Part shown: positions 38,747 to 54,379 of the stretch, in pieces
Position numbering within the stretch: the stretch's first letter is position 1
How the letters are laid out: every line of letters begins with the position of its first letter
NCBI GenBank assembly: GCA_034432445.1
Contig: DAOUBX010000094.1
Location: 1-62,661, forward strand
Reading direction: 5' to 3'
Length of the DNA stretch: 62,661 nt
DNA from: Anaerolineales bacterium
GTDB lineage: Bacteria; Chloroflexota; Anaerolineae; JAAEKA01
Made by a program: the position numbers and the translations under genes
Notes under the pieces: model-generated
Told to the model about the DNA's origin: nothing
What the model saw: only the letters and a program-made list of their open reading frames with translations
Databases searched by the model: none

Positions 38747-40294
38747 ATGCGCCAACACCAACAACGCACCGTTGAGGGTTTTCTCTTCACCGACCAATAC
38801 CAGCTCACCATGTCCCAGCTCTATTTCCGCATGGGCCTGCACGAGCGCCAGGCGCAGTTCGACCACTTCTTCCGTCGCTATCCCAACTATGGCTCGCATC
38901 AGGCCGGCTACTGCATCAACGCTGGGCTGGAATGGCTGGTGGACTGGATGCGACAGGCCCACGTGACCGACGAGGACATCGACTACCTGCGCAGCCAGCG
39001 CGGCCCCGCAGGGCAACGCACCTTCAGCGATGACTTCCTTGCCTGGTTGCGACGCGCCGGCGGGTTCGACGGCATCACCCTGCACGCCATCCCCGAAGGC
39101 CGCGTGGTGCATCCCGACGTGCCGCTGACGGTCGTAGAGGGGCCTCTAGCCCTGGCGCAGATCCTGGAGACGCCGCTGCTCAACCTGCTGAACTACCAGA
39201 CGCTCATTGCCACCAAAGCAGCGCGCATTCGCGAGGTGGCTCGCAAGGGCACAGTGCTGGAGTTTGGCCTGCGTCGCGGGCCGGAGCGGGGGGCCAACGC
39301 CGGCGGCCGCGCGGCGCTGATCGGCGGCGCCGACTTCAGCTCCAACGTCGGGCTCTCCCACGTGCTGGATCTACCGCCGAAAGGCACCCACGCCCACAGC
39401 ATGGTGCAGGTGTTCATGGCCATGGGCGCCGGCGAGCTGGCCGCGTTCCGCGCCTATGCTGAAGTCTACCCCGACAACTGCCTCTTGCTGGTGGACACCG
39501 TAGACACCCTCGGCAGCGGCGTGCCCCACGCTATCACCGTCTTCGAGGAGTTGCGCCGGGCCGGCCACCGCCCCGTGGGCATCCGCCTGGACTCTGGCGA
39601 CCTGGCCTATCTCTCGATCCAGGCCGCGAAGATGCTGGACGAGGCCGGCTTCCCGGAAACAGTTATCGTGCTCAGCAACGAGCTGGACGAGTTGAACATT
39701 TGGCAGATCACCAGCCAGATCGCCGAGGAAGCCCTCCGTTACGGCGTCGACCCCGACCGGTTGATCCGCCGCCTGGTGTACGGCGTGGGCACCCGGTTGA
39801 TCACGTCAGCCGGCCAGGGCGCCCTAGACGGCGTGTACAAGCTGGTGGCGGTGGAGGTAGAAGGAGAGATGCAACCGGCCATCAAGATCTCCGAGTCTAT
39901 TGCCAAGACGCTGAACCCGGGGAACAAGCGGGTGTGGAGGCTCTACGACCGGCGCGGCCTGGCTACTGCCGACCTGCTGACCCTAGCCGACGAGGAACCT
40001 GCCCAGCAGCCAGAGCTCACGCTGCGTCACCCGGCGGACCACACCAAGTACCGCGTCCTGCGGCAGGAGGAGATAGCGCGCATCGAACCCCTGCTGGTGG
40101 AGGTACTGCGCGAGGGTCGGCTGGTGATCGATCTCCCTACACTGGCGGAAATGCGGCAGCGCCGTGCAACCGACGTAGAACACCTCGACCCGGGCGTGCG
40201 TCGCCTGGTGACGCCGCACATCTACCACGTCAGCCTGAGCCAGCGACTGTGGGACTTGAAACAGACGTTGATCAAACAAGCCAGGGGCAGTTAG
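38747..40294 (+). CDS. pncB: Nicotinate phosphoribosyltransferase
   Basis: [39 protein letters not shown]; SD GAAGGAG. Confidence 0.93.
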
Positions 40295-40336
40295 CCAGCG
40301 CAGCAGCAAACTGACATGGTGAGCGGCCTTGAGGAC

Positions 40337-40368
40337 AAAAGAAGAGGCGAGCCTGACAGGCTCGCCTC
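40337..40368 (-). terminator. SRP RNA terminator
   Basis: GAGGCGAGCCTG-A-CAGGCTCGCCTC with a minus-strand T-rich tail. Confidence 0.75.
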
Positions 40369-40377
40369 ATGATTCCT

Positions 40378-40647
40378 GGCCGTGCACCCCTCGTCGAACT
40401 GCGACCCCCGGCTTACCGAACCAGTAGGCTCCAGCCAGGCTACCCCGTGGCACCCACAGGTGACCGCTTATGGCTGCTACCTCCCGGTCCTGACCAGGTT
40501 CACGGGCCTGCGCCGCACAGGACCCAGCTCTCGACGCCACTTAGCCCGGCAGTCACAAAGATCGTCGAGCCCTTGGAGTGGGAATTCAGCCCCGCTATAG
40601 CGGATTGCGGGTACAAGGCACCGCTAGCGCCCCGCTTAGCACGACCA
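40378..40647 (-). ncRNA. ffs: Large (Alu-containing) signal recognition particle RNA
   Basis: Helix-8 motif TCAGGACCGGGAGGTAGCAGC. Complementary ends GGTCGTGC / GCACGGCC about 270 nt apart, with own promoter and terminator. Confidence 0.93.
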
Positions 40648-40652
40648 CCCTC

Positions 40653-40681
40653 ATTGTACCGCAGATAAGGAGGGGTGGCAA
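40653..40681 (-). promoter_or_regulatory. ffs promoter
   Basis: TTGCCA-N17-TACAAT. Confidence 0.8.
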
Positions 40682-40752
40682 GTTGGCTGCCGCGCGTTGT
40701 GCGCAGACTTGAATCAAAAAGTCGGCGTCCAACACGCCGACTTTCTGGACAC

Positions 40753-40842
40753 TGGCGGAGAGGGTGGGATTTGAACCCACGATCCCCGGAGGGATACGCG
40801 CTCTCCAGGCGCGCGCACTAGACCGGACTATGCGACCTCTCC
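40753..40842 (-). tRNA. tRNA-Ser(GGA)
   Basis: 90 nt; anticodon arm CGCGC-CTGGAGA-GCGCG, long variable arm, GGTTCAAATCC, encoded CCA. Confidence 0.97.
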
Positions 40843-40909
40843 ATGAACTACGAGGATTATACCATTACCGCTCAGGCGCCACCAAATCTGCCCTTGTCGT
40901 AACCGTTTG

Positions 40910-41160
40910 GTAACTGCTCAGCCCGGTGAACGGAACACCTGCACTTGCATCGCAGGTGCAAGTGTTCACCGCGTCTGACAGCACGACACCTGCGCCTGCG
41001 CCGACGAAGCCTTAAGAAGCGAAGCGCCTGGTGGGCCGCAGGCGAGGTGCAGGTGAGCGGCCACAGCCGCTGGGAACACGCTCCGCCAGGCTCTGCGGGG
41101 CCTTCGTACTGTCAGCCGGGGATTTCCAATCCTTGGATAGGGGTACGCCTGAGCAGTTAC
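40910..41160. mobile_element. 251-bp MITE of the same TIR family
   Basis: Perfect TIRs GTAACTGCTCAG / CTGAGCAGTTAC. Flanks ACCGTTTG and ACTGTTTG match at 7 of 8. Hairpin-rich interior. Confidence 0.78.
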
Positions 41161-41343
41161 ACTGTTTGAACATATGGCCGGGCACCTGAGTCCACGTTTG
41201 TAAGGGTGTTCGCAGAGCCGACTTCCGCTGCAGACCGGTCGTCAGTGTGCGGCACCTGCATAGGCCCTTTGTCAACGATGACTCGACCCAAGATTTTGAA
41301 ACAAGAGCGCCCCGGCAGGGTGCTTTCTGCCGGGGCGCCTGAT

Positions 41344-41433
41344 TGGCGGAGAGGGTGGGATTTGAACCCACGAGGGCGTAAACCCTACGCGTTTTCGAGA
41401 CGCGCGCACTCGGCCAAACTATGCGACCTCTCC
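41344..41433 (-). tRNA. tRNA-Ser(CGA)
   Basis: 90 nt; anticodon arm CGCGT-CTCGAAA-ACGCG, long variable arm, encoded CCA. Confidence 0.97.
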
Positions 41434-41445
41434 TTGTCTGAAGCC

Positions 41446-41474
41446 ATTATACATGACCACGATGTGACGGGCAA
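41446..41474 (-). promoter_or_regulatory. tRNA-Ser(CGA) promoter
   Basis: TTGCCC-N17-TATAAT. Confidence 0.75.
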
Positions 41475-41703
41475 ATCGCCGCGTTTCATCAGGCGCAGCG
41501 CCGGCTGGGCCGACGCAGCGAGCGACACGGCAAGTTGCCTGACCCACCAGCTTGCAGTGCGCATCGCGGCTCGCCGCTTGGCTCAGCGAAGCAAACATGA
41601 GCTAGATCATGTCGCAAAATGCCGCGCTGCGTTACAATGCATTACAGCGAAGTTGAGACGACGTGCGCCATGAGAGGCAAAAAAGCACCATTAAGGAGAA
41701 GCA

Positions 41704-43257
41704 ATGACAACAGCCTTACCAGAAATCACCGAATTGCGTCAGATGCGCGCCCGCGCCATCGCAGGTGGCGGACCCGACCGCAGCGAGCAGCAGCACGCCA
41801 AGGGCAAGCTCACAGCGCGCGAGCGTTTGGCCGCCTTGCTGGATGAAGGCAGTTTCCAAGAAATCGGCGCGCTGGCCACCCACAACATCACCGACTTCGA
41901 CATGGCCGACAAGAAATACCCGGGGGACGGCGTTGTGGCCGGCTTTGGCAAGATACGCGGCCGCAAGGTAGCCATCTATGCCCAGGACTTCACTGTGCTC
42001 GGCGGCTCTTTTTCCGAGGTGCAGTCGCACAAGATCTGCCGCATTATGGACGTCGCTCTGGAAAGCGGCATTCCGATCATCGGCCTGATCGACAGCGGCG
42101 GCGCGCGCATCCAGGAAGGGGTACGCAGCCTGGCCGCCTACGGCGAGCTCTTCACCCGCAACGTGTTGGCCTCGGGCGTCGTGCCGCAGATCTCGGTGAT
42201 TCTAGGGCCCAGTGCGGGCGGCGCCGTGTACTCACCGGCGCTCACCGACTTCGTGATCATGGTGCGCAAGATCAGCTACATGTTCATCACCGGGCCAGAC
42301 GTGATCAAAACCGTCACCGGCGAGGATGTCAGCTTTCGCGACCTGGGCGGCACGCTGGTGCACAACTCAAAGAGCGGTGTGGCACACCTGCTGGCGGACA
42401 GCGAACAGCAGGCCTTTCTGCAAGTCAAGCAGCTGCTCAGCTACCTACCGCCTAACAACGCCGAGGACCCGCGGCGCGTCGATCCCTACGACGACCCTTT
42501 GCGCATGGACGAGGAGCTGAACCAGATCGTGCCCGCCGACGATACCCAGCCCTACGACATGCACGAGGTCCTGCAACGCGTCATGGATCGCAACAGCTTC
42601 TTCGAGATTCAGCCCTATTTCGCGCGCAATGCCATCACCGGCTTCGCACGGCTAGACGGCTACGTGGTCGGCGTGGTGGCCAATCAGCCCAACTATCTGG
42701 CCGGCGTGCTTGATATCGACAGCAGCGACAAGATCGCGCGCTTCGTGCGCATCTGCGACGCCTACAACATCCCCATCGTTACCTTCGTCGACTGTCCTGG
42801 CTACCTACCAGGCGTGGACCAGGAACACCACGGCATCATCCGGCACGGCGCCAAGGTGATCTACGCCTACTGCGAGGCCACCGTGCCCAAGATCTCCATC
42901 GTCACCCGCAAAGCCATCGGCGGCGCCTACATCGCCATGAGCAGCAAGCAGATGCGCTCCGATCTGGCGTTTGCCTGGCCCACAGCCGAGATCGCCGTCA
43001 TGGGGCCTGACGGCGCGGCGAACGTCTTGTACCGTCGTGAGCTCAGTCAGGCGCAAGACCCTGAAGCGTTGCGCACGCAGATCGCCGAGGAGTACCGCCG
43101 CAAGTTCCTCAATCCTTACGTGGCCGCCGACGTCGGGCAAATCGACGAAGTCTTAGAACCGCGCGAGACGCGGCCGCGCCTGATTGCGGCGCTTGACATC
43201 TTGCGCGGCAAGGTTAGCTCCAACCCGGCGCGTAAACACGGCTTGATGCCGGTTTGA
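41704..43257 (+). CDS. Acyl-CoA carboxyltransferase (methylmalonyl-CoA decarboxylase alpha / PccB-like)
   Basis: DFTVLGGS, DSGGARIQEG, GPSAGGAVYSPA, DCPGYLPG, AVMGPDGA, KHGLMPV. Confidence 0.93.
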   Translation: MTTALPEITELRQMRARAIAGGGPDRSEQQHAKGKLTARERLAALLDEGSFQEIGALATHNITDFDMADKKYPGDGVVAGFGKIRGRKVAIYAQDFTVLGGSFSEVQSHKICRIMDVALESGIPIIGLIDSGGARIQEGVRSLAAYGELFTRNVLASGVVPQISVILGPSAGGAVYSPALTDFVIMVRKISYMFITGPDVIKTVTGEDVSFRDLGGTLVHNSKSGVAHLLADSEQQAFLQVKQLLSYLPPNNAEDPRRVDPYDDPLRMDEELNQIVPADDTQPYDMHEVLQRVMDRNSFFEIQPYFARNAITGFARLDGYVVGVVANQPNYLAGVLDIDSSDKIARFVRICDAYNIPIVTFVDCPGYLPGVDQEHHGIIRHGAKVIYAYCEATVPKISIVTRKAIGGAYIAMSSKQMRSDLAFAWPTAEIAVMGPDGAANVLYRRELSQAQDPEALRTQIAEEYRRKFLNPYVAADVGQIDEVLEPRETRPRLIAALDILRGKVSSNPARKHGLMPV

Positions 43258-43288
43258 CCGGGCTACCCTTGCTGCGGGAGAAACGCCG

Positions 43289-43651
43289 ATGAGCGACGAG
43301 TTTATCCAGGGTTTACAGATCACTGTTGTCGGCATGGGCTTGGTGTTCGGCGCGCTCGTCCTGCTGTGGGGATTGATGGCGCTGCTCACCCGACTGTCGC
43401 AGATCCGGCCTAGGCGAAGCCGACGGCAGCAGGCCGCCGCGGCCGAGACTGCGCCGGCCGCTGGCGCCCATGCGCCTACCCCGCAAGAAATCGCCGCCAT
43501 TGCCACCGCTCTCTGGCTGTTGCGCGCCGAGCATGAGGCAGAAGCTGCCCTGCGCTGGCGCTTGCCGCCTGTGTTGACGCGCTGGGTGGCCGTGGGCTAC
43601 AGCCGCACCCTCCGCTCCTGGCAACCGCGCCGCACCCCACGCGACGCATGA
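43289..43651 (+). CDS. OadG/MmdD-type decarboxylase gamma/delta subunit
   Basis: N-terminal TM (ITVVGMGLVFGALVLL), Ala/Pro linker, EIAAIATAL; synteny. Confidence 0.82.
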   Translation: MSDEFIQGLQITVVGMGLVFGALVLLWGLMALLTRLSQIRPRRSRRQQAAAAETAPAAGAHAPTPQEIAAIATALWLLRAEHEAEAALRWRLPPVLTRWVAVGYSRTLRSWQPRRTPRDA

Positions 43652-43702
43652 GCGCAGCTTGTGGACGAGCGTGAACGAAACTAGAACAGAATCGAGACCA
43701 CC

Positions 43703-44182
43703 ATGCGCAGTTTCCGCATCAACGTTGAAGGCCAATCCTTCCTGGTCGAGATCGACGACCCGCAACAGCGGCCGCTGTCCGTGCGGGTGAACGGCCGACC
43801 GTTCACGGTGGATGTAGAATGGCAGGGGGCAGAGGCCGAAGCCACCGTCTCGCCGGCCGTCCTGCCCACCTCTGCGCCGGTTGCAAGCCAGCCCGCGCCG
43901 CTGCGCCTGCCCGTTCAGCCGCCGCCACCGCCCATCAGCGAAGCCGAACAACAGACCCTCGCTGCGATTGAAGCTCCTATGCCCGGCACCATCGTCGAGG
44001 TGCGTGTCAAGCCCGGTGACAACGTGGTGCGCGGGGACGAGGTGTGCGTCCTGGAAGCGATGAAGATGCGCAACAGCATCAAATCTAGCCGCGCCGGCCA
44101 GATCGCTGAGGTATTGGTTGCCCCCGGCACCAAGGTCGCCTACGGTGATCCGCTCGTCCGCTTTGCCGACAACGCGACCTGA
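43703..44182 (+). CDS. Biotin carboxyl carrier subunit
   Basis: APMPG...LEAMKM biotinylation site after a Pro/Ala linker. Confidence 0.93.
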   Translation: MRSFRINVEGQSFLVEIDDPQQRPLSVRVNGRPFTVDVEWQGAEAEATVSPAVLPTSAPVASQPAPLRLPVQPPPPPISEAEQQTLAAIEAPMPGTIVEVRVKPGDNVVRGDEVCVLEAMKMRNSIKSSRAGQIAEVLVAPGTKVAYGDPLVRFADNAT

Positions 44183-44241
44183 CGTTATCCTGCTGCGGTT
44201 TCCCGCCACCTTGGCGTTGCTGGGAAGCCCGGACCAAGCCC

Positions 44242-45363
44242 ATGAACACAGATCTCATCTCCCTGCTTACCCAGGGTTTCCAGGCTTTGAGCGTTGGCAA
44301 CGTGGTAATGATGGCCGCCGGCGGCGTGTTGATCTTCCTTGCCATCGCCAAAAACTATGAACCGGTGTTGCTGATCCCTATCGGCGCCGCCGCCATTATC
44401 GCCAACATTCCCCTCACCGGCATGACGGAAGAAGATGGCCTCTTCGGCATCCTCTATGCAGCCGGCATCGCCACCGAGCTCTTCCCCCTGTTGATCTTCA
44501 TCGGCATCGGCGCCATGACCGACTTCGGGCCGCTGCTGGAAAACCCCAAGATGGTTCTGCTGGGCGCGGCCGGCCAGTTCGGCATCTTTGGTACCCTGCT
44601 GGTAGCCTTGGCGCTGGGCTTTACCCTGAACGAGGCCGCATCGATCGGCATCATCGGCGCTGTCGACGGACCGACATCGATCTACGTCTCTAGCCAGCTT
44701 GCGCCGCACCTGCTGGCGCCCATAGCCGTGGCTGCCTACAGCTATATGAGCCTGGTGCCGATCATCCAGCCGCCCATCATGCGCGCCATGACCACCCGCA
44801 AGGAGCGCCGAGTGCGCATGCCCTACACGGCGAGGCCCGTGAGCAAGCCGACGCGCATCCTGTTTCCGATCGCCGTCACGCTCGCCACCGGCCTGTTGGT
44901 GCCCATGGCCACGCCGCTGATCGGCATGCTGATGTTCGGCAATCTGCTGCGCGAGTCTGGGGTGGTGGAGCGGCTGGTGGACGCGGCCAGCAACGAGATC
45001 GCCAACGTCACCACGATCTTCCTCGGCCTTGCCATTGGCTCGACCATGGTAGCCGAAAGCTTCTTGCGGCTCGACACCCTGCTGATCTTGGTGCTGGGCA
45101 TTGTGGCGTTCGCCCTGGACACGGCGGCAGGCTTGCTGTTCGGCAAGTTTCTTTACCTGGTCACGCGCGGCAAGTTCAACCCGTTGATTGGAGCAGCCGG
45201 CATCTCCGCCTTCCCCATGGCAGCGCGGGTCGTGCAGCGCATTGGCCAGGAGGAGGACTTCGACAATTTCCTGCTGATGCACGCTATGGGTGCCAACACG
45301 GCAGGCCAGATCGCATCGGCGCTGGCCGGCGGCATTGTCCTGGCACTCTTGGCCGGCGGCTGA
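44242..45363 (+). CDS. Na+-translocating decarboxylase beta subunit (OadB/MmdB)
   Basis: YEPVLLIPIG, GAMTDFGPLL, IGIIGAVDGPTSI, AAYSYMSLVPIIQPP, ISAFPMAARV, HAMGANTAG. Confidence 0.95.
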   Translation: MNTDLISLLTQGFQALSVGNVVMMAAGGVLIFLAIAKNYEPVLLIPIGAAAIIANIPLTGMTEEDGLFGILYAAGIATELFPLLIFIGIGAMTDFGPLLENPKMVLLGAAGQFGIFGTLLVALALGFTLNEAASIGIIGAVDGPTSIYVSSQLAPHLLAPIAVAAYSYMSLVPIIQPPIMRAMTTRKERRVRMPYTARPVSKPTRILFPIAVTLATGLLVPMATPLIGMLMFGNLLRESGVVERLVDAASNEIANVTTIFLGLAIGSTMVAESFLRLDTLLILVLGIVAFALDTAAGLLFGKFLYLVTRGKFNPLIGAAGISAFPMAARVVQRIGQEEDFDNFLLMHAMGANTAGQIASALAGGIVLALLAGG

Positions 45364-45605
45364 CGGACCACGTCTCATCACGCTCTCAGCCGGTCGACCT
45401 TGCATCGAGCACGGGCGAGTCTGGCGCAATCGCCAGGGCCGTGGTAGAATGGCGCCAGCCAGGCAACCTCCAACATGACGACCGCCCAGCCGCCGGAGAG
45501 CACTCAGCGCGACGCCAGCGCCCGGCGTCTGGGTCAGAGCACTGAGGCTTATGCCGGCTGCTGTCATCTCCCTCTGACTGCGGTATCCGCGCAACGGTGC
45601 TTGCC

Positions 45606-46535
45606 ATGCCCACCATCGCTTCCTCTTTGCGCTCGCTCTCCATCAGCAGCTACATCGCTCCCATTCTCACACAGCCCAACCTGACAGCCAAGGTGGAGAC
45701 CGTGTTTGCCGAGGTGGTCAACCTGCTGGTGGAGCCGAGCGTCTACGTCGCACTGGTCAGCGAGCACATCGGCAACGGCCCTCTCAATGTTGTGGTCGAG
45801 CCGGCCGCGCTGCTGGCAGTCCTGCGGCCCGGCGACCAAATCACCGGCGATGGACATCGGCTGCAGCTGGGCCGCGGGTGGGAGCTGGACGTGGCTACCG
45901 CGACCGTTTGGGACACCTGCCCGTCCTACAACCAGCTCAGCCGGCGGCCCCAAGTCGTGCGTAGCAACCTAGAGCGCCTGCGCACAGGGCTGCCGCTCGA
46001 AGCGCCGCCGGCCAGTCTGGCGGCTGCACCTGCTTATCACACGCAAGGCGCCTTTGGCAGCCGACCGGCGATCGCGCTGGTACAATCGCAAGCGTGGGAG
46101 CTCACCGATGGCCTGCGCCGCGCCTACCGCACCGGCAACCTGCAATGGATCCGCGTCTTTGCCCGTCGCCTGGCCGGCCTTGGCCCTGGGTTGACGCCGG
46201 CCGGGGACGACTGGCTGGCCGGCTGGCTGGTCGGTTTGCGCGCCCGTCAGGCGCTCGACTTGGACGAGGATGAACCCTTGCTGGCCGTAGAGGCGGTAGG
46301 CGAAGCCGTAATCGCCGCAGCAGAGGGACACACCACCGACCTGAGCCTAGCTTTCCTACGCGCGGCGGCGGTCGGCGCCACCCCCCAGGCCTGGCACGAT
46401 CTGATCACCAGCCTGACCGACGCCGACCCGATGACGTTGCGCACGGCAACCGCTGAGGTGCTGCGCTTTGGCGCCACCTCGGGCGCCGACATGCTGGCGG
46501 GCTTTTTGGCCGCGCTGGCAGACGACACCGTTTAG
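45606..46535 (+). CDS. DUF2877 protein (YlbF/AllH/YahE-like)
   Basis: LAGLGPGLTPAGDDWLAG, TTDLS, FGATSGADMLAG. Confidence 0.88.
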   Translation: MPTIASSLRSLSISSYIAPILTQPNLTAKVETVFAEVVNLLVEPSVYVALVSEHIGNGPLNVVVEPAALLAVLRPGDQITGDGHRLQLGRGWELDVATATVWDTCPSYNQLSRRPQVVRSNLERLRTGLPLEAPPASLAAAPAYHTQGAFGSRPAIALVQSQAWELTDGLRRAYRTGNLQWIRVFARRLAGLGPGLTPAGDDWLAGWLVGLRARQALDLDEDEPLLAVEAVGEAVIAAAEGHTTDLSLAFLRAAAVGATPQAWHDLITSLTDADPMTLRTATAEVLRFGATSGADMLAGFLAALADDTV

Positions 46536-46546
46536 GAGACAGCTCC

Positions 46547-48127
46547 ATGCCAATCGCCACTCGCATCCTCCCGTCTGCCTACTTCGACTCGATCACACTG
46601 ATGCTGGCCGCCAAAGACCTGTTGGCCATGCCGGGGGTGCAAGACGCGGCCCTTGTGATGGGCACTCCGGCCAACCTGGGGCTGATGCGCGATGCCGGCT
46701 TGTTGACCGACGCCGCCGCAGAAGCCACGCCCAACGACTTGGTGGTCGCAGTGTTGGCCGCGGATGAAGCCACGGCTGCCGCCGCAGCGTCCGCCGTAGA
46801 CGCGATCTTGGCCAGCCACAAGCAGAGCCCAGCGGTTTCCGGCGGCCAACCAAGGCCTCGTTCGTTGCGCGCGGCGTTGCGCCAGGCGCCCGACGCCAAC
46901 CTGGCGATGATCTCCGTGGCCGGTCGCTACGCGGCGCGCGAGGCGCGGTGGGCGCTGGAACACGGTCTGCACGTCATGCTCTTTAGCGACAACGTCAGCC
47001 TGGAGGATGAAATCGCGCTCAAAGCTTTGGCAGAGCAACGCGGCCTGCTATGCATGGGGCCTGACGCCGGCACAGCGATCATCAACGGCATCGGTCTAGG
47101 CTTCGCCAACGCCGTACCGCGTGGGCCCATCGGCATCGTCAGCGCGGCCGGTACCGGCCTGCAGTCGGTCAGCAGCGACATCGCGCGGCGCGGCAGCGGC
47201 GTGAGCCAGGCCATCGGCACGGGCGGCCGCGACCTGAGCGAGGCCGTGGGCGGCCGAGCAATGCTTGCGGGCCTGCAAGCGCTGCAAGCCGACCCGCACA
47301 CCGCGGTCATCGTCCTGATCTCCAAACCGCCGGCCGACCCAGTGGCTCACAAGCTCCTGGCGCAGGTGCGGGCCAGCCAGAAGCCCACGGTGGTCTGTTT
47401 CTTGGGCGCCGACCCTGGCATGATCGAGCGCGCCGGCGCCATCCCCGCCAGCACCTTGGAACAGGCGGCGGCCATTGCCGTGGCCCTGGCGCAAGGCGGC
47501 GATTGGTGCGGCGCCATCGTGGCCTGCGATGAAGCCCCACTGGCCTACCTGCCGCCAGCGCAGGCGGAACAGGCGAAGCTTCAGCCTGGCCAGCGCTTCA
47601 TTCGTGGCCTCTTTGCAGGCGGCACGTTCTGCTACGAAGCGCAGCTCGTCGCTGAAGGGCTGCCTGACCCCGTCTACTCGAACGCGCCGATCACGAAGGC
47701 TGTGGCCAGCCACCAACCACCGCCGGACGCCGTCGTCCACGGCCAGCATGTGTTCCTCGACCTGGGCGCGGACGAGTACACGGTGGGCCGGTTGCATCCC
47801 ATGCTCGATCCCACGCTGCGCAACCGCATGATCCTTCAGGCCGCAGATGACCCCGAAGTCGCCGTGCTGCTGCTGGATGTTGTGCTCGGCTACGGCGCGC
47901 ACCCAGACCCGGCCGGAGAGGCGGCACAAGCGATACAAGCTGCGCGCGCCCGCGCCGCTGCTGCCGGCCGCTATCTGCCGGTGGTCACCTTCGTTTGCGG
48001 CACCGAGAACGATCCCCAACGGCTAAGCCAGCAGGAAGCTAAGCTCAAAGCAGCCGGCGCGCTGGTCACGGCCAGCAACGCGCAAGCGACGCGCGTGGCG
48101 TCGTTGATCCTGGCCGGCCATGCCTAA
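46547..48127 (+). CDS. fdrA: FdrA/AllF/YahF acyl-CoA synthetase-like protein
   Basis: YFDSITLM, MGTPAN, ISVAGRYA, MLFSDNV, MGPDAGT, GTGGRDL, GLFAGGTFC, GRLHPM, DVVLGYG. Confidence 0.92.
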   Translation: MPIATRILPSAYFDSITLMLAAKDLLAMPGVQDAALVMGTPANLGLMRDAGLLTDAAAEATPNDLVVAVLAADEATAAAAASAVDAILASHKQSPAVSGGQPRPRSLRAALRQAPDANLAMISVAGRYAAREARWALEHGLHVMLFSDNVSLEDEIALKALAEQRGLLCMGPDAGTAIINGIGLGFANAVPRGPIGIVSAAGTGLQSVSSDIARRGSGVSQAIGTGGRDLSEAVGGRAMLAGLQALQADPHTAVIVLISKPPADPVAHKLLAQVRASQKPTVVCFLGADPGMIERAGAIPASTLEQAAAIAVALAQGGDWCGAIVACDEAPLAYLPPAQAEQAKLQPGQRFIRGLFAGGTFCYEAQLVAEGLPDPVYSNAPITKAVASHQPPPDAVVHGQHVFLDLGADEYTVGRLHPMLDPTLRNRMILQAADDPEVAVLLLDVVLGYGAHPDPAGEAAQAIQAARARAAAAGRYLPVVTFVCGTENDPQRLSQQEAKLKAAGALVTASNAQATRVASLILAGHA

Positions 48128-48147
48128 TTGGCGAATGCACCCACCTC

Positions 48148-48957
48148 ATGACCTCACAGACCGCCTCGTCACCCCTCGACCGCAGCGCACTCGTCACGCT
48201 GCGACCCATCACTGCAGACAACCTGCGTGACGTGCTGCGCCTGCAAGTTGCGCCGGCGCAACAGCACTTTGTCGCGCCCAACGCTGTCTCCCTGGCCGAG
48301 GCGCACTTCAACCAATACGCCTGGTACCGCGCCATCTACGCCGACGAGACGCCTGTTGGCTTTGTCATGCTTTATGACAATCCCGTCAAGCCCGAGTACT
48401 TCCTCTGGCGGCTGATGGTCGACGCACGCTACCAGGGCAACGGCTTTGCCCGGCGGGCCGTGCAGTTGCTCATCGACTACGTGCGGACACGGCCCGGCGC
48501 AACCGAGCTGCTGGTCAGCCACGGCGAGGGGGAGGGCAACCCTGGTCCCTTCTACGTCTTCCTCGGCTTCACGTACACCGGCGACAAACTCGGCGACGAG
48601 TTAGTGATGCGTTTGCCGTTACAAACGGCTGCCCAGCCTCCGCCGCCAGCGCCGCAAGCCAAACCGCTGACGCACGTGGTGCTCTTCAAGCTCAAGGACC
48701 GCAGCCCACAAGCGGTGGCAAAGACTGCTGAGGTGCTGCGCAGCATGGAAGGCAAGATCGCGCCGCTGCACGCCCTCGAGATCGGCCTCAACGTCGTCCC
48801 CTCCCCGCGCGCTTACGATATCGCCTTGATCACCCGCTTTGCCAGCCTAGCCGACATGGAGCTCTATCAGGTGCACCCCATCCACCAGGGCGTGCTGGCC
48901 CACATGCGCGAGGTGATGGAGGCCGCCGTAGCGGTAGATTTCGAGAGTGACCACTAG
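48148..48957 (+). CDS. GNAT acetyltransferase (polyamine acetyltransferase-like) fused to a Dabb stress-responsive barrel
   Basis: RLMVDARYQGNGFAR acetyl-CoA motif, Pro linker, then HVVLFKLK...DIALITRF...YQVHPIHQ. Confidence 0.82.
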   Translation: MTSQTASSPLDRSALVTLRPITADNLRDVLRLQVAPAQQHFVAPNAVSLAEAHFNQYAWYRAIYADETPVGFVMLYDNPVKPEYFLWRLMVDARYQGNGFARRAVQLLIDYVRTRPGATELLVSHGEGEGNPGPFYVFLGFTYTGDKLGDELVMRLPLQTAAQPPPPAPQAKPLTHVVLFKLKDRSPQAVAKTAEVLRSMEGKIAPLHALEIGLNVVPSPRAYDIALITRFASLADMELYQVHPIHQGVLAHMREVMEAAVAVDFESDH

Positions 48958-48966
48958 AGACGCGAT

Positions 48967-49025
48967 CCGGTCACCCAACCACCGATCACCGGTTACCGAT
49001 GACTGCTCACCGATCACCGAACACC
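48967..49025. repeat. Heptamer array (ACCGATC-like x8)
   Basis: ccggtca cccaacc accgatc accggtt accgatg actgctc accgatc accgaac, ending at the SD AGGAG. Confidence 0.8.
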
Positions 49026-49037
49026 AGGAGCAACGAC

Positions 49038-50426
49038 ATGAGCAAGATCGCTGACCTGTTTGCCCAGCCGCTCAAACCGATAAACCTAGGTCTGGAGACC
49101 TTCGCCGAAAGCATGGCCAGCCAAGGCGCAGCGCCCGTTGTCGTCGATTGGCAGCCGCCGGTCGACGGTTATGTCGAGCTTGACACCTTGCAAGGCGTTG
49201 CTGTCGATGCGGCAAACGCTGAAGCGCTGCGACGCATCACCAGCGGCCGGCCGCTGCTGGTGGGCATGGGCGTGGCGCGTGAAGTCATCCCTGGTTTCCA
49301 CGACCGCTTGATCACGCACAGTGGCCCCCCGATCACCTGGGAGCGCATGAGCGGCCCCACACGCGGCGCGGTTGTCGGCGCGCTGATCTACGAAGGGCTG
49401 GCCATCACGCCTGAGGAGGCCGAGGCGCTGGCGGCCAGCGGCGAGATCGAGTTTGCGCCCTGCCACCATTTTCATGCCGTCGGCCCCATGGCCGGTATCA
49501 TCAGCCCTTCCATGCCGGTGTTCATCGTGCGCAACGAGACCTTCGGCAACCTGGCTTATGCTACACAAAACGAAGGCTTAGGCCGCGTGCTGCGCTACGG
49601 CGCCTACGGTCCCGAAGTGATCCAACGGCTGGAGTGGATGGAGCGGGTGCTCTATCCGGCGCTGCAGCGCGCGCTGGCTAAGTCGGGGCCGATCGACCTG
49701 CGTTCGCTGACCGCCCAAGCGCTGCACATGGGCGACGAGTGCCACAACCGCAACAAGGCCGGTACCTCGCTGTTCATCCGCGCCATCGGCCCCGCCCTCG
49801 TGGAGACCAGCGACGCAGCCACGGCCGCAGCGGTGCTGCGCTTCATCGACGGCAACGACCACTTCTACCTCAACCTCTCCATGCCGGCCATGAAGGCCAT
49901 GCTGGAGCCGGCCGAGAACATCCCCGGTTGCACGGTCGTCACGGTGATGGCGCGCAACGGCACCGACTGGGGCATCCGCGTTAGCGCCACCGGCGACCGC
50001 TGGTTTACTGCGCCGGCGCCCTACGTGCAGGGCCTGTGGCTGCCGGGCTATACGGCTGATGATGCTAACCCCGACATCGGCGACAGCGCCATCACCGAAA
50101 CGGGCGGCATCGGCGGCTTCGCCCTGGCTGCGGCGCCGGCCATCGTCCAGTTCGTCGGCGGCACGCCGCAGGACGCGTTGAACACCACCCTGACGATGTA
50201 CGACATCACGGTGGGCGAGCACAGCGCCTTCAGCATCCCGGCGCTGAACTTCCGCGGCACGCCGGTCGGGGTGGACGTGCGGCGGGTGATCGAGACGGGC
50301 ATCACCCCGCGCCTCAACACCGGCATTGCACACAAAACACCCGGCGTCGGTATGGTCGGCGCGGGCTTAGTCCAGGCACCGCTGGGCTGCTTCGAGCAAG
50401 CCTTTACGGCCCTGAAAGAACTGTAG
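49038..50426 (+). CDS. DUF1116 protein (YlbE/AllG/YahG-like)
   Basis: THSGPPITW, PCHHFHAVGPMAG, LHMGDECHNRN, MARNG, PDIGDSAITETGG, INTG-like LNTGIAH. Confidence 0.9.
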   Translation: MSKIADLFAQPLKPINLGLETFAESMASQGAAPVVVDWQPPVDGYVELDTLQGVAVDAANAEALRRITSGRPLLVGMGVAREVIPGFHDRLITHSGPPITWERMSGPTRGAVVGALIYEGLAITPEEAEALAASGEIEFAPCHHFHAVGPMAGIISPSMPVFIVRNETFGNLAYATQNEGLGRVLRYGAYGPEVIQRLEWMERVLYPALQRALAKSGPIDLRSLTAQALHMGDECHNRNKAGTSLFIRAIGPALVETSDAATAAAVLRFIDGNDHFYLNLSMPAMKAMLEPAENIPGCTVVTVMARNGTDWGIRVSATGDRWFTAPAPYVQGLWLPGYTADDANPDIGDSAITETGGIGGFALAAAPAIVQFVGGTPQDALNTTLTMYDITVGEHSAFSIPALNFRGTPVGVDVRRVIETGITPRLNTGIAHKTPGVGMVGAGLVQAPLGCFEQAFTALKEL

Positions 50427-50445
50427 AGCACCAAGGAGCACATAC

Positions 50446-50658
50446 ATGACATCTGTTCCCTACGATCCTGCGATCACCAACCATCTGCAGGTGGCGGCCG
50501 AGCTGATCGCCCTCAAAGGCGCCACAGAAGAGCGCGTAGCCTGGGCGCGCTTTCTCCTGAGCGAGCTGGAGCCCATGATGCCCAAAGCAGCCTACACCGA
50601 CCTACTCACCCAGTTGCAAGAGCTGATTGCGGGGCGGCTGGCCGACGGCGCCTGGTAA
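50446..50658 (+). CDS. Small helical hypothetical protein
   Basis: SD AAGGAG; 70-aa ORF inside the operon. Confidence 0.65.
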   Translation: MTSVPYDPAITNHLQVAAELIALKGATEERVAWARFLLSELEPMMPKAAYTDLLTQLQELIAGRLADGAW

Positions 50659-50733
50659 GCCGGTTGGTCACCCTCGCAGCGCCTCCTGTCGGAAAGATCC
50701 CTGACCACCGCCTCATCTTCGGAGACACGCCCC

Positions 50734-51600
50734 ATGAAGTTCATCGACCTGTCCATTCCCCTGGGCATCGGCACTCCCGCCTGGCCCACCTACGAACCGC
50801 TGCAAGTCAAGTACTTCAAACGCCTGGCGCCCAACGGCGCCAACGGCCAGCTCCTCACCCATTCCAACCATCTCGGCACCCACCTGGACGGTGAAATCCA
50901 CTTCTACACCCCCGGCAAGGACATCGCCAGCCTGACGCTCGATTTTCTCACCGGACCCGGCGTGATCGTGGACCTCTCCGATGTCGCCGGCGACTACGAC
51001 ATCTACACATCCGCCATGGTGGAGGAGCGCGTCGAGGTGCGCGAGGGTGACATCCTGATCATCCACACCGGCTATCATCACTTCGGCTGGGACCAGCCCA
51101 CGGCGGACGAGGTGGCCTACATGGTCAAGCACCCCGGCCCCGACCGCGAGTTTGCCGAGTGGTGCAAGGCCAAGCGCATCAAGTGGATCGGCGTGGACTG
51201 CGGCAGCGCCGACCACCCCATGAACACCATCATCCGCCAATGGATGCCGCGGCAGGCCAAGGAAGCGGATGCCCATTTCCAGGCCAAGTACGGCAAGTCG
51301 CTGGCCGAGGTGTTCACCGACGACAAGTATCAGCTCATGCACATCGAGATGTTCCCTTACGGCATTATCCATGCCGAGTGCGTGGGCGGGGACATCGATC
51401 TGCTGCTCAACCGGCGGGTGCACATCGGCTGCTTCCCCTGGCGGTTCGTGGACGGCGAGGCTAGCATTGCCCGTATCGTCGCTTATGTCGATGACGATGA
51501 GTACGAAGAGCTGATGGCGCGCAAAGCCGCCATGCCCAAGACCCGCTTCGGCGACGCCATTGGCCCCCTGCCGCCGTTAGCCAAGCGGACCAACATCTAG
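50734..51600 (+). CDS. Cyclase family metal-dependent amidohydrolase (kynurenine formamidase-like)
   Basis: HLGTHLDG, GDILIIHTG, IGVDCGSADH, HAECVGGD. Confidence 0.88.
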   Translation: MKFIDLSIPLGIGTPAWPTYEPLQVKYFKRLAPNGANGQLLTHSNHLGTHLDGEIHFYTPGKDIASLTLDFLTGPGVIVDLSDVAGDYDIYTSAMVEERVEVREGDILIIHTGYHHFGWDQPTADEVAYMVKHPGPDREFAEWCKAKRIKWIGVDCGSADHPMNTIIRQWMPRQAKEADAHFQAKYGKSLAEVFTDDKYQLMHIEMFPYGIIHAECVGGDIDLLLNRRVHIGCFPWRFVDGEASIARIVAYVDDDEYEELMARKAAMPKTRFGDAIGPLPPLAKRTNI

Positions 51601-51602
51601 CC

Positions 51603-52832
51603 GTGAAGGCCATCCGTTTCAACGCCACCATCCCGCGCTATGCGGCCGGGCTGGCCCTGGGCAAGGTGCGCCCTGCACTGCTCTGGAGCGGCCTTGCCTG
51701 CACGTCCATGGAGGACTTGCCGCCACCCCCCCTGCCTGGCCCCGATTGGGTGCGCATCCGCACCCGGCTGGGCGGCATCTGCGGCAGCGACCTGAGCGCC
51801 ATCCACCTGCACACCAGCCCCTACTATTCGGCTCTGGTCTCCTTCCCCTACACCCTCGGCCACGAAAACGTGGGCGTCATTGCGGAAGAAGGGCCGCAGG
51901 TGCAAGGCTGGCAGCCAGGAGAGCGGGTTGTGGTGGAGCCCTCGCTGTGGTGCGCGCCGCGCGGCTTTGCCGCCGACGACTGGTGCCAAGCTTGCCGACG
52001 CGGCGAGATCAATCGCTGCGAACGGATGCAGGAGGGACAGCTGGCGCCTGGCATGTTCATCGGCGCGTGTCGGGACACCGGCGGCAGTTGGAGCCCCTTC
52101 TTCGTGGCGCACCACACCCAGCTCTATCGCGTTCCCGCCACCCTCAGCGATGAAAACGCACTCATGGTGGAACCCTTCGCGTGCAGCCTGCACGCCGTGC
52201 TACAGCACCCGCCCAACGACGATGATACGGTGCTGGTCATCGGCAGCGGCACCATGGGCCTCGGCGTGATCGCAGCAATACGAGGGCTGGGCAGCAAAGC
52301 TACCGTGTTGGTTGCGGCCCGCTATCCCTTCCAGGCCGAGGCCGCTCGTCGTCTGGGCGCCACCGAGGTGCTGGGTCGTGACTTGACAGAGGAAGTAAAG
52401 CTGCGCACGGCGGCGGCCGTGCGCAGACCGATGATCGGCAAGCCGGTGGTGATCGGCGGCGTCGACCTCACCTACGAGTGTACCGGCAGCGATGCCGCGC
52501 TAGATGATGCGCTGCGGCTGACACGCGCCGGCGGCAAGGTGGTGTTGGTGGGCGTGCCCGGCGTTCCGAAGGGCCTGGATTGGACCCCCATCTTCGCACA
52601 GGAGCTTACCGTAGTAGCCGCTTACACCTACCACCACGCCGAGCAGTGGCAAGGGAAGCGCTGGCGCACCTTTGACCTGGCGCTCGATCTGATGGCACGC
52701 GGCACGGTGGACCTAGGTTGGCTGGTCACGCACCGTTTCCCCCTGGCAGACTACCGCCGCGCGCTGAACATGCTCGGACAAAAGGGCAACAGTGGCATCA
52801 TCAAGGCGGTGTTCGAGTTCCCACCGGATTAG
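51603..52832 (+). CDS. Zn-dependent medium-chain dehydrogenase (MDR)
   Basis: GICGSD, LGHE, four-Cys structural Zn lobe, GSGTMG. Confidence 0.9.
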   Translation: MKAIRFNATIPRYAAGLALGKVRPALLWSGLACTSMEDLPPPPLPGPDWVRIRTRLGGICGSDLSAIHLHTSPYYSALVSFPYTLGHENVGVIAEEGPQVQGWQPGERVVVEPSLWCAPRGFAADDWCQACRRGEINRCERMQEGQLAPGMFIGACRDTGGSWSPFFVAHHTQLYRVPATLSDENALMVEPFACSLHAVLQHPPNDDDTVLVIGSGTMGLGVIAAIRGLGSKATVLVAARYPFQAEAARRLGATEVLGRDLTEEVKLRTAAAVRRPMIGKPVVIGGVDLTYECTGSDAALDDALRLTRAGGKVVLVGVPGVPKGLDWTPIFAQELTVVAAYTYHHAEQWQGKRWRTFDLALDLMARGTVDLGWLVTHRFPLADYRRALNMLGQKGNSGIIKAVFEFPPD

Positions 52833-53847
52833 CTGGGCCGACCGGCAGTACGACGATCTCGAACAGCTTAGGCCACCATTTGCCCGTGACGAACAAGCGA
52901 CCGGTCGCGGCATCGTAGGCGATGCCGTTGAGCACATCCACCGGCTGGGCGCGATCCTCTGGCGGCAGCAGCCCGCTCAGATCGACCCAGCCGGTGACGC
53001 GTCCACTGGCCGGATCGATGCGCGCGATCAGGTCGGTCTGCCAGACGTTGGCCCACACCTCCCCCTCGATGTACTCCAACTCATTCAGACGCGTCACAAG
53101 CTGCCCGGCCTCGTCCACCACAGCGAGCCGCTCGCGCTCCTGCAAGGTGTCGGGGTCCAGGAAACGCAGCTGGTTGGTGCCGTCGCTCATGATGAGCTGC
53201 TGACCATCGGTCGTGAGCCCCCAGCCCTCCCCGACATAGCTCCACGTATCCAGCAACGTGAGCGTGCGCCGGTCATAGACGAAACCCACTTGCTCCTGCC
53301 AGCTTAGCTGGTAGATTTTGTCGCCTAGAATGGCGATGCCCTCACCGAAGACCTCGTCGGGCAGACGCACCCCTTGCAACACCTGCCCGGTTGTCGGGTC
53401 CACGATGCGCAAGGTGGACTGCCCACGCAGGCCGGTGCCCTCGTAGAACACGCCGTCAAGATAGACCAGCCCCTGGGTAAAGGCGCCGGGGTCGTGGGGA
53501 AAGGCGTTGACCACCTGGTACGTGTAGACAGGCACGGACGAAGCCAGACTGACAGATGTTGGGGCACTGGACACGGGCGTGGCCGTGGGTGCAGCCGTGG
53601 TAGAGGTGGGGATGGGCGAGGGCGAAGCCTGCGTAGGGAGGGGAAGTGGCGGCGTTCCGATCGTCACGAGCGTCTTGTCTGCCGCGGGAGTCGGCGGCGG
53701 CAGCGCAGGTGTTGAAGTCTCTCCCTGGCAGGCCGCTGCGATCAGACAAAGCAACGCCATAGGAATGGCCAGAAGAGCGCGACGCACTAGCGACGAGCGC
53801 CGAGGCACACCGCGAGGCAAAGCAGGACGGCGCACGGGCCAAGCCAC
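52801..53847 (-). CDS. Glutaminyl-peptide cyclotransferase lipoprotein (start uncertain)
   Basis: LIAAAC lipobox, Pro/Thr linker, AFTQGL, FGEGI, EGWGLT, LNELE, LNGIAYD, TGKWW. Confidence 0.88.
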   Translation of the reverse strand: MAWPVRRPALPRGVPRRSSLVRRALLAIPMALLCLIAAACQGETSTPALPPPTPAADKTLVTIGTPPLPLPTQASPSPIPTSTTAAPTATPVSSAPTSVSLASSVPVYTYQVVNAFPHDPGAFTQGLVYLDGVFYEGTGLRGQSTLRIVDPTTGQVLQGVRLPDEVFGEGIAILGDKIYQLSWQEQVGFVYDRRTLTLLDTWSYVGEGWGLTTDGQQLIMSDGTNQLRFLDPDTLQERERLAVVDEAGQLVTRLNELEYIEGEVWANVWQTDLIARIDPASGRVTGWVDLSGLLPPEDRAQPVDVLNGIAYDAATGRLFVTGKWWPKLFEIVVLPVGPANPVGTRTPP

Positions 53848-54379
53848 AAGATTACTCTCCTGGGGCGTGCACCCATGTGCTGTTCGATTTGCAATCAGTG
53901 AGGACATCGTGGGGAACTCCGTGGCAGCCTGGCCACACAGGGCGAACTCGGCCCGTTGAAAGTTCGGAGTCTCAGCTTCAGCCGGCGCTTGGCGCCACAC
54001 CCGGCTAGAGCCTAGTCGCCTGCCGCCTGAGAACCGCTAGTACATTTGCACCAGCCTCTGCTCGATGCGACGCCGGGCGCTGCTGGAAACGCCGAGCCGT
54101 TTGCCTTAGGGCGGCGACCTAAAGCGAGCGTCGCCATTATACTCCAGGATCAGCCGTCTACCGCAATGGGGCGATACGCTGCGGAATGTCACATGACCAT
54201 CGGTATGACCTTTGGCACTGTTCGACATGACCGGATCGGCTGTACACTTACAGCAGAAACGCACGAGAACTGACGAAGCAAGATGCGGGACATCGACACC
54301 CGCGAGATCGACAGGCGGCGCTGCGACGACACCCTTGGTCTCACCGCCGCCAGAACCTACAAGAACAAGGAGTGCTCCC

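Follow-up and report, generated by a model that had tools for sequence, protein, structure and literature searches.

The 62,661-nucleotide stretch of DNA analysed here (the window; contig DAOUBX010000094.1 of assembly GCA_034432445.1) comes from a metagenome-assembled genome (MAG) of 96.7% completeness affiliated to the Anaerolineae (Chloroflexota), and carries at 45597–52832 seven head-to-tail open reading frames (ORFs), all on the plus strand, among them homologues of the three subunits of Escherichia coli AllFGH. The first gene (45597–46535) encodes an AllH/DUF2877 protein (PF11392, e-value 7.8e-24, 85 bits against a cut-off of 25), and the ATG at 45606, with which an earlier note on the sequence had begun the cluster, is in frame with the start at 45597. 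It is followed by genes for an FdrA/AllF-like protein related to the succinyl-coenzyme A (CoA) synthetase alpha subunit (46547–48127; NF004760, 503 bits against a cut-off of 433, and PF00549), a GNAT domain fused to a Dabb alpha+beta barrel (48148–48957; PF00583, 1.2e-11, and PF07876, 9.5e-20), the long, YahG-like form of AllG/DUF1116 (48999–50426; PF06545, 2.3e-96, 322 bits against 27), a helical protein of 70 amino acids with no family match (50446–50658), a cyclase-family metal-dependent amidohydrolase (50734–51600; PF04199, 5.5e-33, 114.6 bits against 23.1) and a Zn-dependent MDR-family dehydrogenase of the polyol/threonine dehydrogenase type (51603–52832; PF08240 and PF00107). The gaps between successive genes are 11, 20, 41, 19, 75 and 2 nucleotides, and the ORFs and their Pfam and NCBIfam matches confirm the earlier description of seven genes on one strand with short gaps.

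Comparison with related genomes indicates that these seven genes are a clade-specific, dispersed version of a conserved locus; the gene set is widespread in the Anaerolineae and undescribed, and five of the seven genes belong to it. At least 588 AllG relatives occur among species-representative genomes, and the locus survey covered the best 80, nearly all from Anaerolineae/Chloroflexota MAGs, with the isolate Longilinea arvoryzae KOME-1, which has the complete locus (L080), among them. ORFs in these loci were clustered, cluster representatives were annotated, and components were recounted by tblastn and an AllH hidden Markov model. The consensus order is a UraA-like NCS2 permease, a xanthine dehydrogenase (XDH)-type molybdenum (Mo) hydroxylase (FAD, iron–sulphur (FeS) and molybdenum-cofactor (MoCo) subunits), optionally a decarboxylase, then FdrA, AllG, cyclase, a family-less 229-amino-acid protein (u229), a thiolase, DUF35 and AllH. 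Among the 34 of the 80 loci with complete 10-kb flanks, FdrA was found in all 34, the cyclase in 30, the Mo hydroxylase large subunit in 26, u229 in 22, AllH in 21, DUF35 in 17, the thiolase in 16, the permease in 15 and the decarboxylase in 8. The cyclase gene adjoins or follows AllG in 57 of the 80 loci, about half of the time across a gap of <100 nucleotides. A phylogenetic profile of 151 genomes of the class gave a concordant picture: 51 genomes have AllG and 50 the cyclase (47 have both, 7 just one and 97 neither), so that 47 of the 54 genomes having either have both; a Mo hydroxylase orthologue is present in 32 of the 39 genomes having an orthologue of the single cyclase. Identities across the class are 73–94% for the cyclase, 62–87% for AllG and mostly 46–81% for FdrA. 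FdrA, AllG and the cyclase are the core of the locus, and since their arrangement recurs in dozens of related genomes it is not due to chance. The cyclase is, by the same comparisons, the most conserved, ancestral partner of AllG, and the earlier view of an AllFGH-like cluster that had been "rebuilt with a cyclase" is not upheld, as the cyclase is no addition. A full-text literature search found no published description of this cluster type, turning up the AllFGH paper, its follow-ups and one metagenomic use of allFGHK.

Many Anaerolineae carry a second, paralogous module, in which a short AllG and a fused double cyclase take the place of the long AllG and single cyclase seen here. The short AllG lacks the first ~65 residues and is followed by a double cyclase of ~560–610 amino acids (for example G210:C1:497228–500185 and G478:C24:28121–31543), often 2–18 kb from the main cluster. 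Other neighbours recur at lower frequency: a family III CoA-transferase lies a few kb 3' of AllG in three loci (L019, L022 and L056), adjoined in L019 and L022 by a PNP_UDP_1 nucleoside phosphorylase.

In the genome under study the system is dispersed over three blocks, of which the window holds two, kept adjacent. The third, an operon on contig C44 comprising the orthologous permease (82% identity) and Mo hydroxylase (77%) followed by unrelated genes, had been overlooked in the earlier gene inventory, which was otherwise accurate for the seven genes. The u229, thiolase and DUF35 genes are absent from the genome by tblastn; three C44 ORFs of 229, 420 and 122 amino acids were considered as candidates for this trio and rejected, as Pfam assigned them to GNAT, to P450 and to nothing, the sizes being coincidental. 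AllG and the cyclase are on separate contigs in a genome of the same genus (G471) and in two of the same family (G434 and G509). In G471, one contig carries decarboxylase–AllH–FdrA–Dabb–AllG and another the 70-amino-acid protein, cyclase, MDR and glutaminyl cyclase genes. These separations, and the fact that the MDR and 70-amino-acid genes travel with the cyclase block rather than with AllG, are what might be expected if the seven genes were juxtaposed, unrelated blocks with no single function; this is highly improbable, given that adjacency and co-occurrence of AllG and cyclase hold across the class and that GNAT-Dabb recurs with AllH, FdrA, AllG and cyclase in two different arrangements. In a close relative, an opposite-strand PemK/RHH toxin–antitoxin pair has been inserted between FdrA and GNAT-Dabb (L110:8171–8826 and L111:5093–5799), with further toxin–antitoxin and restriction genes 3' of AllG, which suggests that the cluster was broken up through mobile-element activity.

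Directly 5' of the cluster and on the same strand lies a complete four-subunit Na+-translocating biotin decarboxylase operon (41704–45363), which the earlier note, in delimiting the cluster, had missed. It encodes an MmdA-like carboxyltransferase (alpha) subunit (41704–43257; PF01039, 4.2e-187), a gamma subunit or membrane anchor (43289–43651; PF04277 OAD_gamma, 2.3e-12), a biotin carrier (43703–44182; PF00364 Biotin_lipoyl, 3.2e-20) and a Na+-pumping carboxybiotin decarboxylase beta subunit (44242–45363; PF03977, 3.4e-154; TIGR01109, 476 bits against 190.6). A gap of 233 nucleotides separates the beta subunit gene from AllH, which opens a second transcription unit. The alpha subunit scores 765 bits against the mmdA model TIGR01117, by far its top-scoring model, under the cut-off of 998.8. 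Two minus-strand ORFs (43313–44209 and 44185–45594) are family-less and antisense to the decarboxylase genes, and were dismissed as artefacts. The beta subunit is single-copy (one genomic tblastn match). In 15 of the 80 loci a decarboxylase immediately precedes FdrA or AllH, and in several families it is inserted between Mo hydroxylase and FdrA; in the class profile the beta subunit occurs in 38 of 51 AllG-positive and 32 of 100 AllG-negative genomes. A Bmp/PnrA-type nucleoside ABC transporter is encoded directly 5' of the decarboxylase in two loci (L026 and L069). To our knowledge, no such decarboxylase has been described as linked to a nucleobase cluster.

All three AllFGH subunit families (FdrA/AllF, DUF1116/AllG and DUF2877/AllH) are encoded together in the window. 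FdrA matches the E. coli FdrA structure 3DMY with 292 bits, and AllG matches the uncharacterised structural-genomics entry 3CLQ with 413 bits. FdrA shares 41% identity with AllF and 43% with YahF; for AllG the values are 46% with E. coli AllG (YlbE) and, over the full length, 47% with YahG; AllH shares 35% identity, confined to a local stretch, with E. coli AllH (YlbF) and 23% with YahE. The two E. coli paralogue sets, AllFGH and YahFGE, are 38%, 45% and 25% identical to each other in the respective pairs. The trio is thus nearly equidistant from AllFGH and YahEFG; it belongs to the family, but these values do not establish it as an orthologue of the oxalurate enzyme. Within AllH, the motifs GLGxGLTPxGDD and TSG are kept unchanged in all of 27 orthologues and RTT is invariant or nearly so. 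An AlphaFold2 model of AllH (mean predicted local distance difference test (pLDDT) 92, predicted template modelling score (pTM) 0.91) shows an N-terminal beta domain and a helical bundle and has no fold neighbour in the PDB at e-value <= 0.001; the idea that AllH is a ribokinase-like phosphate-binding protein, which its GDDxLxG and TSGxD motifs had invited, was dropped because this confident model lacks a PDB neighbour. In E. coli AllF, the C-terminal tail (residues 513–554) resembles the N-terminal extension of YahG (residues 12–53; 28% over 42 residues, e-value 7e-4; L118/L119), a likeness which suggests that the segment may have moved between subunits in the two paralogous sets. The YahG-type arrangement of this segment is present in the window.

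Purified E. coli AllFGH transfers the carbamoyl group to and from phosphate, with kinetics reported for carbamoyl phosphate and oxamate (PMC11326118). An ordinary oxamate carbamoyltransferase of this kind, performing oxalurate phosphorolysis at the end of allantoin/purine degradation as in E. coli, would be compatible with the passing of family models by all three subunits, with the identities to AllF, AllG and AllH and with the presence of carbamate kinases in the genome. We consider this very unlikely here. Genes for allantoinase, AllC and AllD score below cut-off or not at all in the genome (allantoinase 218 against 358 bits, AllC 29 against 598, AllD no match), and there is therefore no route to oxalurate. 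None of the 80 loci has a carbamate kinase gene closer than 10 kb; the trio is equally close to YahEFG and shares with it the gene order and the long AllG form; and nothing in the E. coli pathway calls for the tight partnership with a cyclase and a Mo hydroxylase. The earlier note had described the cluster as free of carbamate kinase and allantoin genes, and this stands: allB, allC and allD are absent from the genome, and its only carbamate kinases sit in other settings, one beside arginine deiminase (contig C171) and one beside OTCase-like and PALP genes (contig C17), that is, in arginine-deiminase and YgeW-type purine contexts. With allB, allC and allD missing, the ground on which the note itself would have given up its reading does not arise. 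At C17:8.7–18 kb (L108), an OTCase-like carbamoyltransferase, the carbamate kinase, a PALP enzyme, a fused FeS–MoCo hydroxylase and a GntR regulator are encoded together. This set looks, from its gene content, like the YgeW/YqeA/YgeX/XdhD cluster of the reductive uric acid pathway described in 2025 (PMC12507026). Carbamate kinase is present in 48 of the 51 AllG-positive genomes; its co-occurrence was discarded as an indicator of phosphorolysis, because with 131 of the 151 class genomes possessing the gene its presence discriminates nothing.

The cyclase carries an N-terminal metal motif, H46-x-G-T-H50-x-D52-x3-H56 (HLGTHLDGEIH), which aligns with HTGTHIDAPFH of the Bacillus anthracis kynurenine formamidase and is invariant in 30 orthologues. 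The protein is unusually conserved: mean column identity across the class is 83% in the same 30 orthologues, and many further His, Asp, Glu and Cys residues are invariant, among them H111, H115, H133, D155, D160, H161, H203, H213, E215, C216, D240 and E242. All 16 significant Foldseek matches of its structural model (pLDDT 72) belong to the same family with probability 1.00, comprising kynurenine formamidases, isatin hydrolases and uncharacterised metal-dependent hydrolases/cyclases of one fold, while the KynB arylformamidase equivalog model TIGR03035 is failed by a wide margin (47 bits against 223). In the literature, the PF04199 family includes ring-opening amidohydrolases such as isatin hydrolase, as well as kynurenine formamidase and dihydrophloroglucinol cyclohydrolase, and by analogy with these we propose the cyclase as the candidate ring-opening enzyme. 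No AtzD-family barbiturase (PF09663) was matched in the genome. In the phylum, PF09663 was found in 9 of 401 genomes, at loci without FdrA or AllG; in three loci from another Chloroflexota family (L104, L106 and L107), the AtzD/barbiturase gene adjoins a three-subunit Mo hydroxylase, a cyclase paralogue of 46% identity, an amidohydrolase and an NCS2 permease. The possibility that a barbiturase replaces the cyclase in related clusters was rejected, as the AtzD loci carry a cyclase paralogue and no FdrA or AllG; their existence neither supports nor refutes a role of the cyclase as barbiturase.

Three further genes of the cluster lie outside these families. GNAT-Dabb belongs to a large family in Chloroflexota and retains the acyl-CoA motif Q/RxxGxG/A (YQGNGFA, residues 95–101; PF00583, 45 bits against 20.7). 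In L110 and L111 (76% identity) it is placed between FdrA and AllG, with the decarboxylase ahead of them; in L112 (64%) the order is AllH–GNAT/Dabb–DUF4058–cyclase; and in L114 (57%) the context is unrelated. It is a recurrent clade-specific accessory. No GNAT-Dabb locus contains u229, thiolase or DUF35, and GNAT-Dabb may thus substitute for this trio, a suggestion based on a single clade. The 70-amino-acid ORF is a real gene, conserved in the genus and linked to the cyclase: an AAGGAG ribosome-binding site lies 7 nucleotides before its ATG, its codon-position GC contents (0.68, 0.44 and 0.76) are coding-like, and a homologue of 47% identity is found upstream of the cyclase in G471. These features speak against a spurious ORF, although the protein is absent from the 80 related loci and has no match in Pfam or NCBIfam. 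The MDR dehydrogenase, a conserved Anaerolineae protein of ~407 amino acids that in the PDB matches sorbitol and threonine dehydrogenases best, starts 2 nucleotides after the cyclase stop codon and is probably co-transcribed. The glutaminyl cyclase, kinase, regulator and DnaJ genes downstream accompany it in conserved synteny; it is also found in loci that lack the cluster (L116 and L117) and beside a lone cyclase (L115), and the family member G509 does not have it next to the cyclase. Because it maintains its own synteny, occurs without the cluster and is absent in G509, it is probably a bystander; as a pathway enzyme it was rejected, and its earlier listing as a member of the cluster is probably mistaken.

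With the gene content of the window, the conserved core and the linkage in relatives to permease, Mo hydroxylase and decarboxylase directly observed, the reading that we favour is anaerobic oxidative pyrimidine catabolism, most likely of uracil or thymine, in which AllHFG would split ureidomalonate and a Na+ pump would conserve energy; we put its probability at about 45%, somewhat less than even. The permease and Mo hydroxylase encoded on C44 would take the base into the cell and hydroxylate it, using water, to barbiturate (5-methylbarbiturate in the case of thymine). The cyclase would open the ring to give ureidomalonate, which is oxalurate with one additional CH2, and AllH–FdrA–AllG would split this with phosphate, as E. 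coli AllFGH does oxalurate, into carbamoyl phosphate and malonamate. One of the two carbamate kinases of the genome could then convert carbamoyl phosphate to ATP, NH3 and CO2. The C3 part would become malonyl-CoA (methylmalonyl-CoA from thymine), GNAT-Dabb being the candidate enzyme in this clade, where it would take the place of the u229–thiolase–DUF35 trio of other Anaerolineae. Decarboxylation of the CoA ester by the Na+-translocating biotin decarboxylase would finally build a sodium gradient. In favour of this reading are the better score of the permease as a uracil than as a xanthine permease, the insertion of the decarboxylase between Mo hydroxylase and FdrA in several families, the enrichment of its beta subunit among AllG-positive genomes, the nucleoside transporter, nucleoside phosphorylase and CoA-transferase genes of some loci and the lack of a urease in the genome. 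The earlier note had put forward an uncharacterised pathway for another N-heterocycle or amide, where a ring-opening reaction would supply a carbamoyl- or CoA-transfer step. Comparative genomics, with permease, Mo hydroxylase and nucleoside genes in related loci, agrees with this, and we regard that interpretation as partly supported, right in spirit and wrong on composition.

Several observations weigh against pyrimidine catabolism as set out above. Permease scores are under the curated cut-offs, and each substrate named is a prediction. No carbamate kinase is linked to the cluster, unlike in E. coli allFGHK and yahEFGI; the genomic presence of the gene, common as it is in the class, does not discriminate; and two near-complete genomes have AllG and cyclase without any carbamate kinase. 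The decarboxylase, single-copy, present in a third of AllG-negative genomes and adjacent in so few loci, may be a general fermentation enzyme. Coexistence of an AtzD gene with a cyclase paralogue implies that the cyclase may have another function. In this genome there is no linkage between the three blocks, and u229, thiolase, DUF35, GNAT-Dabb and the 70-amino-acid protein have no assigned role.

Some of the same evidence could be accommodated if an identical logic of Mo hydroxylase, cyclase and AllHFG served another heterocycle, such as a purine-derived ureide, orotate, a hydantoin or a pyridine, with the decarboxylase a mere neighbour. The Mo hydroxylase is equidistant between XdhA (538 bits) and 4-hydroxybenzoyl-CoA reductase (552 bits), the permease is under the cut-off of every NCS2 subfamily, the decarboxylase is rarely adjacent, and the second AllG clade with its fused double cyclase suggests several substrates. 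We consider this possible but rather doubtful, as the permease scores clearly better as a uracil/RutG-type than as a xanthine-type transporter (235 bits with the uracil permease model, 144 with that of xanthine permease), the position of the decarboxylase between Mo hydroxylase and FdrA in several families suits a C3 dicarboxyl product, and the genome already possesses a YgeW/YgeX/carbamate kinase/XdhD-type purine cluster on C17 (PMC12507026).

A further alternative concerns the chemistry rather than the substrate. FdrA–AllG(–AllH) might use CoA instead of phosphate, either transferring a malonyl group from an acylurea or malonate or acting as an ADP-forming acyl-CoA synthetase, in which case urea or ammonia would be set free, leaving the Na+ pump as the sole energy-conserving step. 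The relationship of FdrA to the succinyl-CoA synthetase alpha subunit, with CoA-binding and CoA-ligase domains, the lack of carbamate kinase in any of the 80 loci and the recurrent CoA-dependent partners (decarboxylase, thiolase–DUF35, GNAT and family III CoA-transferase) would all be in keeping with this. It is nevertheless unlikely in view of the carbamoyl transfer to and from phosphate by purified E. coli AllFGH (PMC11326118) and the presence of carbamate kinase in nearly all AllG-positive genomes; moreover, no urease was found in the genome to recover urea nitrogen, and any urea released would therefore be wasted.

Returning to uracil or thymine as the substrate, the full extension of the proposal would be a fifth, oxygen-independent pyrimidine degradation pathway widespread in uncultured anaerobes, conserving energy twice per molecule of base, as substrate-level ATP from carbamoyl phosphate through an AllFGH-type "malonamate carbamoyltransferase" and carbamate kinase and as sodium-motive force through decarboxylation of the remaining (methyl)malonyl-CoA, with the cyclase as a non-homologous barbiturase and GNAT-Dabb standing in for the CoA step of thiolase, DUF35 and u229. 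In this complete form the proposal is tentative, and we think it less likely than not to be correct.

The borders of the region are marked by unrelated features. On the left, between a nicotinate phosphoribosyltransferase gene and the decarboxylase operon, the minus strand encodes a bacterial large signal recognition particle (SRP) RNA (40380–40644; 190 bits) and two tRNA genes (40756–40842 and 41347–41433). On the right, a convergent glutaminyl cyclase gene (52801–54000, minus strand) overlaps the MDR gene 3' end to 3' end by 32 nucleotides (52801–52832). No riboswitch or other cis-regulatory family was matched in 40000–53500, the SRP RNA and the two tRNAs being the only genuine RNA matches, and contig C44 gave no credible RNA-family match that would name a substrate.

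AllFGH was recognised as an enzyme only in 2024, and for oxalurate only. If the proposed role is correct, the cluster and its relatives would represent a second and far more widespread context, making the three-subunit family a general device for splitting N-acylureas, and would provide functions for DUF1116, DUF2877 and a highly conserved cyclase-family enzyme, together with genes for the uracil dehydrogenase step, long a sequence orphan. Anaerolineae abound in anoxic sediments, sludge and soils, habitats in which nucleobases are a steady source of carbon and nitrogen, and an energy-yielding anaerobic route for using these compounds would alter the reading of the fermentative niche of this class. 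The window itself adds that the system is modular, can be dispersed over the genome and in several families is connected with a Na+ pump, and that its CoA-dependent accessory genes are interchangeable.

Among the known systems closest to the cluster are two E. coli gene sets. With AllFGH/AllK (PMC11326118) the cluster shares the same three families, FdrA passing the NCBIfam and AllG and AllH the Pfam cut-offs, and the reaction proposed here is of the same kind, the phosphorolysis of an N-carbamoyl amide. The gene order differs, F-G-H in E. coli against H-F-(GNAT)-G here; E. coli has AllK and allECD nearby, whereas here neither is nearby and the allantoin genes are absent from the genome; the obligatory partners here are a cyclase-family hydrolase and a Mo hydroxylase; and AllFGH splits oxalurate, while the substrate proposed here is its C3 homologue. 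The uncharacterised yahE–yahF–yahG–(yahH)–yahI–yahJ set has the same order of DUF2877, FdrA-like and DUF1116 genes as the cluster, shares the long AllG form of ~472 amino acids and is slightly more similar than AllFGH in YahF and YahG. It also contains a hydrolase, YahJ, which belongs to the amidohydrolase superfamily and not to the cyclase family, and it has a carbamate kinase-like gene and lacks Mo hydroxylase and decarboxylase.

MmdABCD is the methylmalonyl-CoA decarboxylase of Veillonella and Propionigenium. The decarboxylase of the window has four subunits like this Na+-translocating enzyme and its beta subunit passes the family cut-off, whereas its alpha subunit stays under that of mmdA; malonyl-, methylmalonyl- or other carboxy-acyl-CoA are candidate substrates of the predicted enzyme. 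Known PF04199 hydrolases have the fold and the N-terminal metal motif HxGTHxDxxxH in common with the cyclase, which is 15–20% identical to solved members and ~80 residues longer than kynurenine formamidases. The classical oxidative pyrimidine pathway of Rhodococcus, Corynebacterium and Mycobacterium consists of uracil/thymine dehydrogenase, barbiturase and ureidomalonase. This pathway, which is named in PMC12507026, has the barbiturate and ureidomalonate intermediates and a Mo-type dehydrogenase first step in common with our proposal. It differs in using an AtzD-family barbiturase, for which we propose a cyclase-family hydrolase, and a ureidomalonase that yields urea and malonate, in place of which a phosphorolytic AllFGH-type enzyme and a Na+ pump would operate here.

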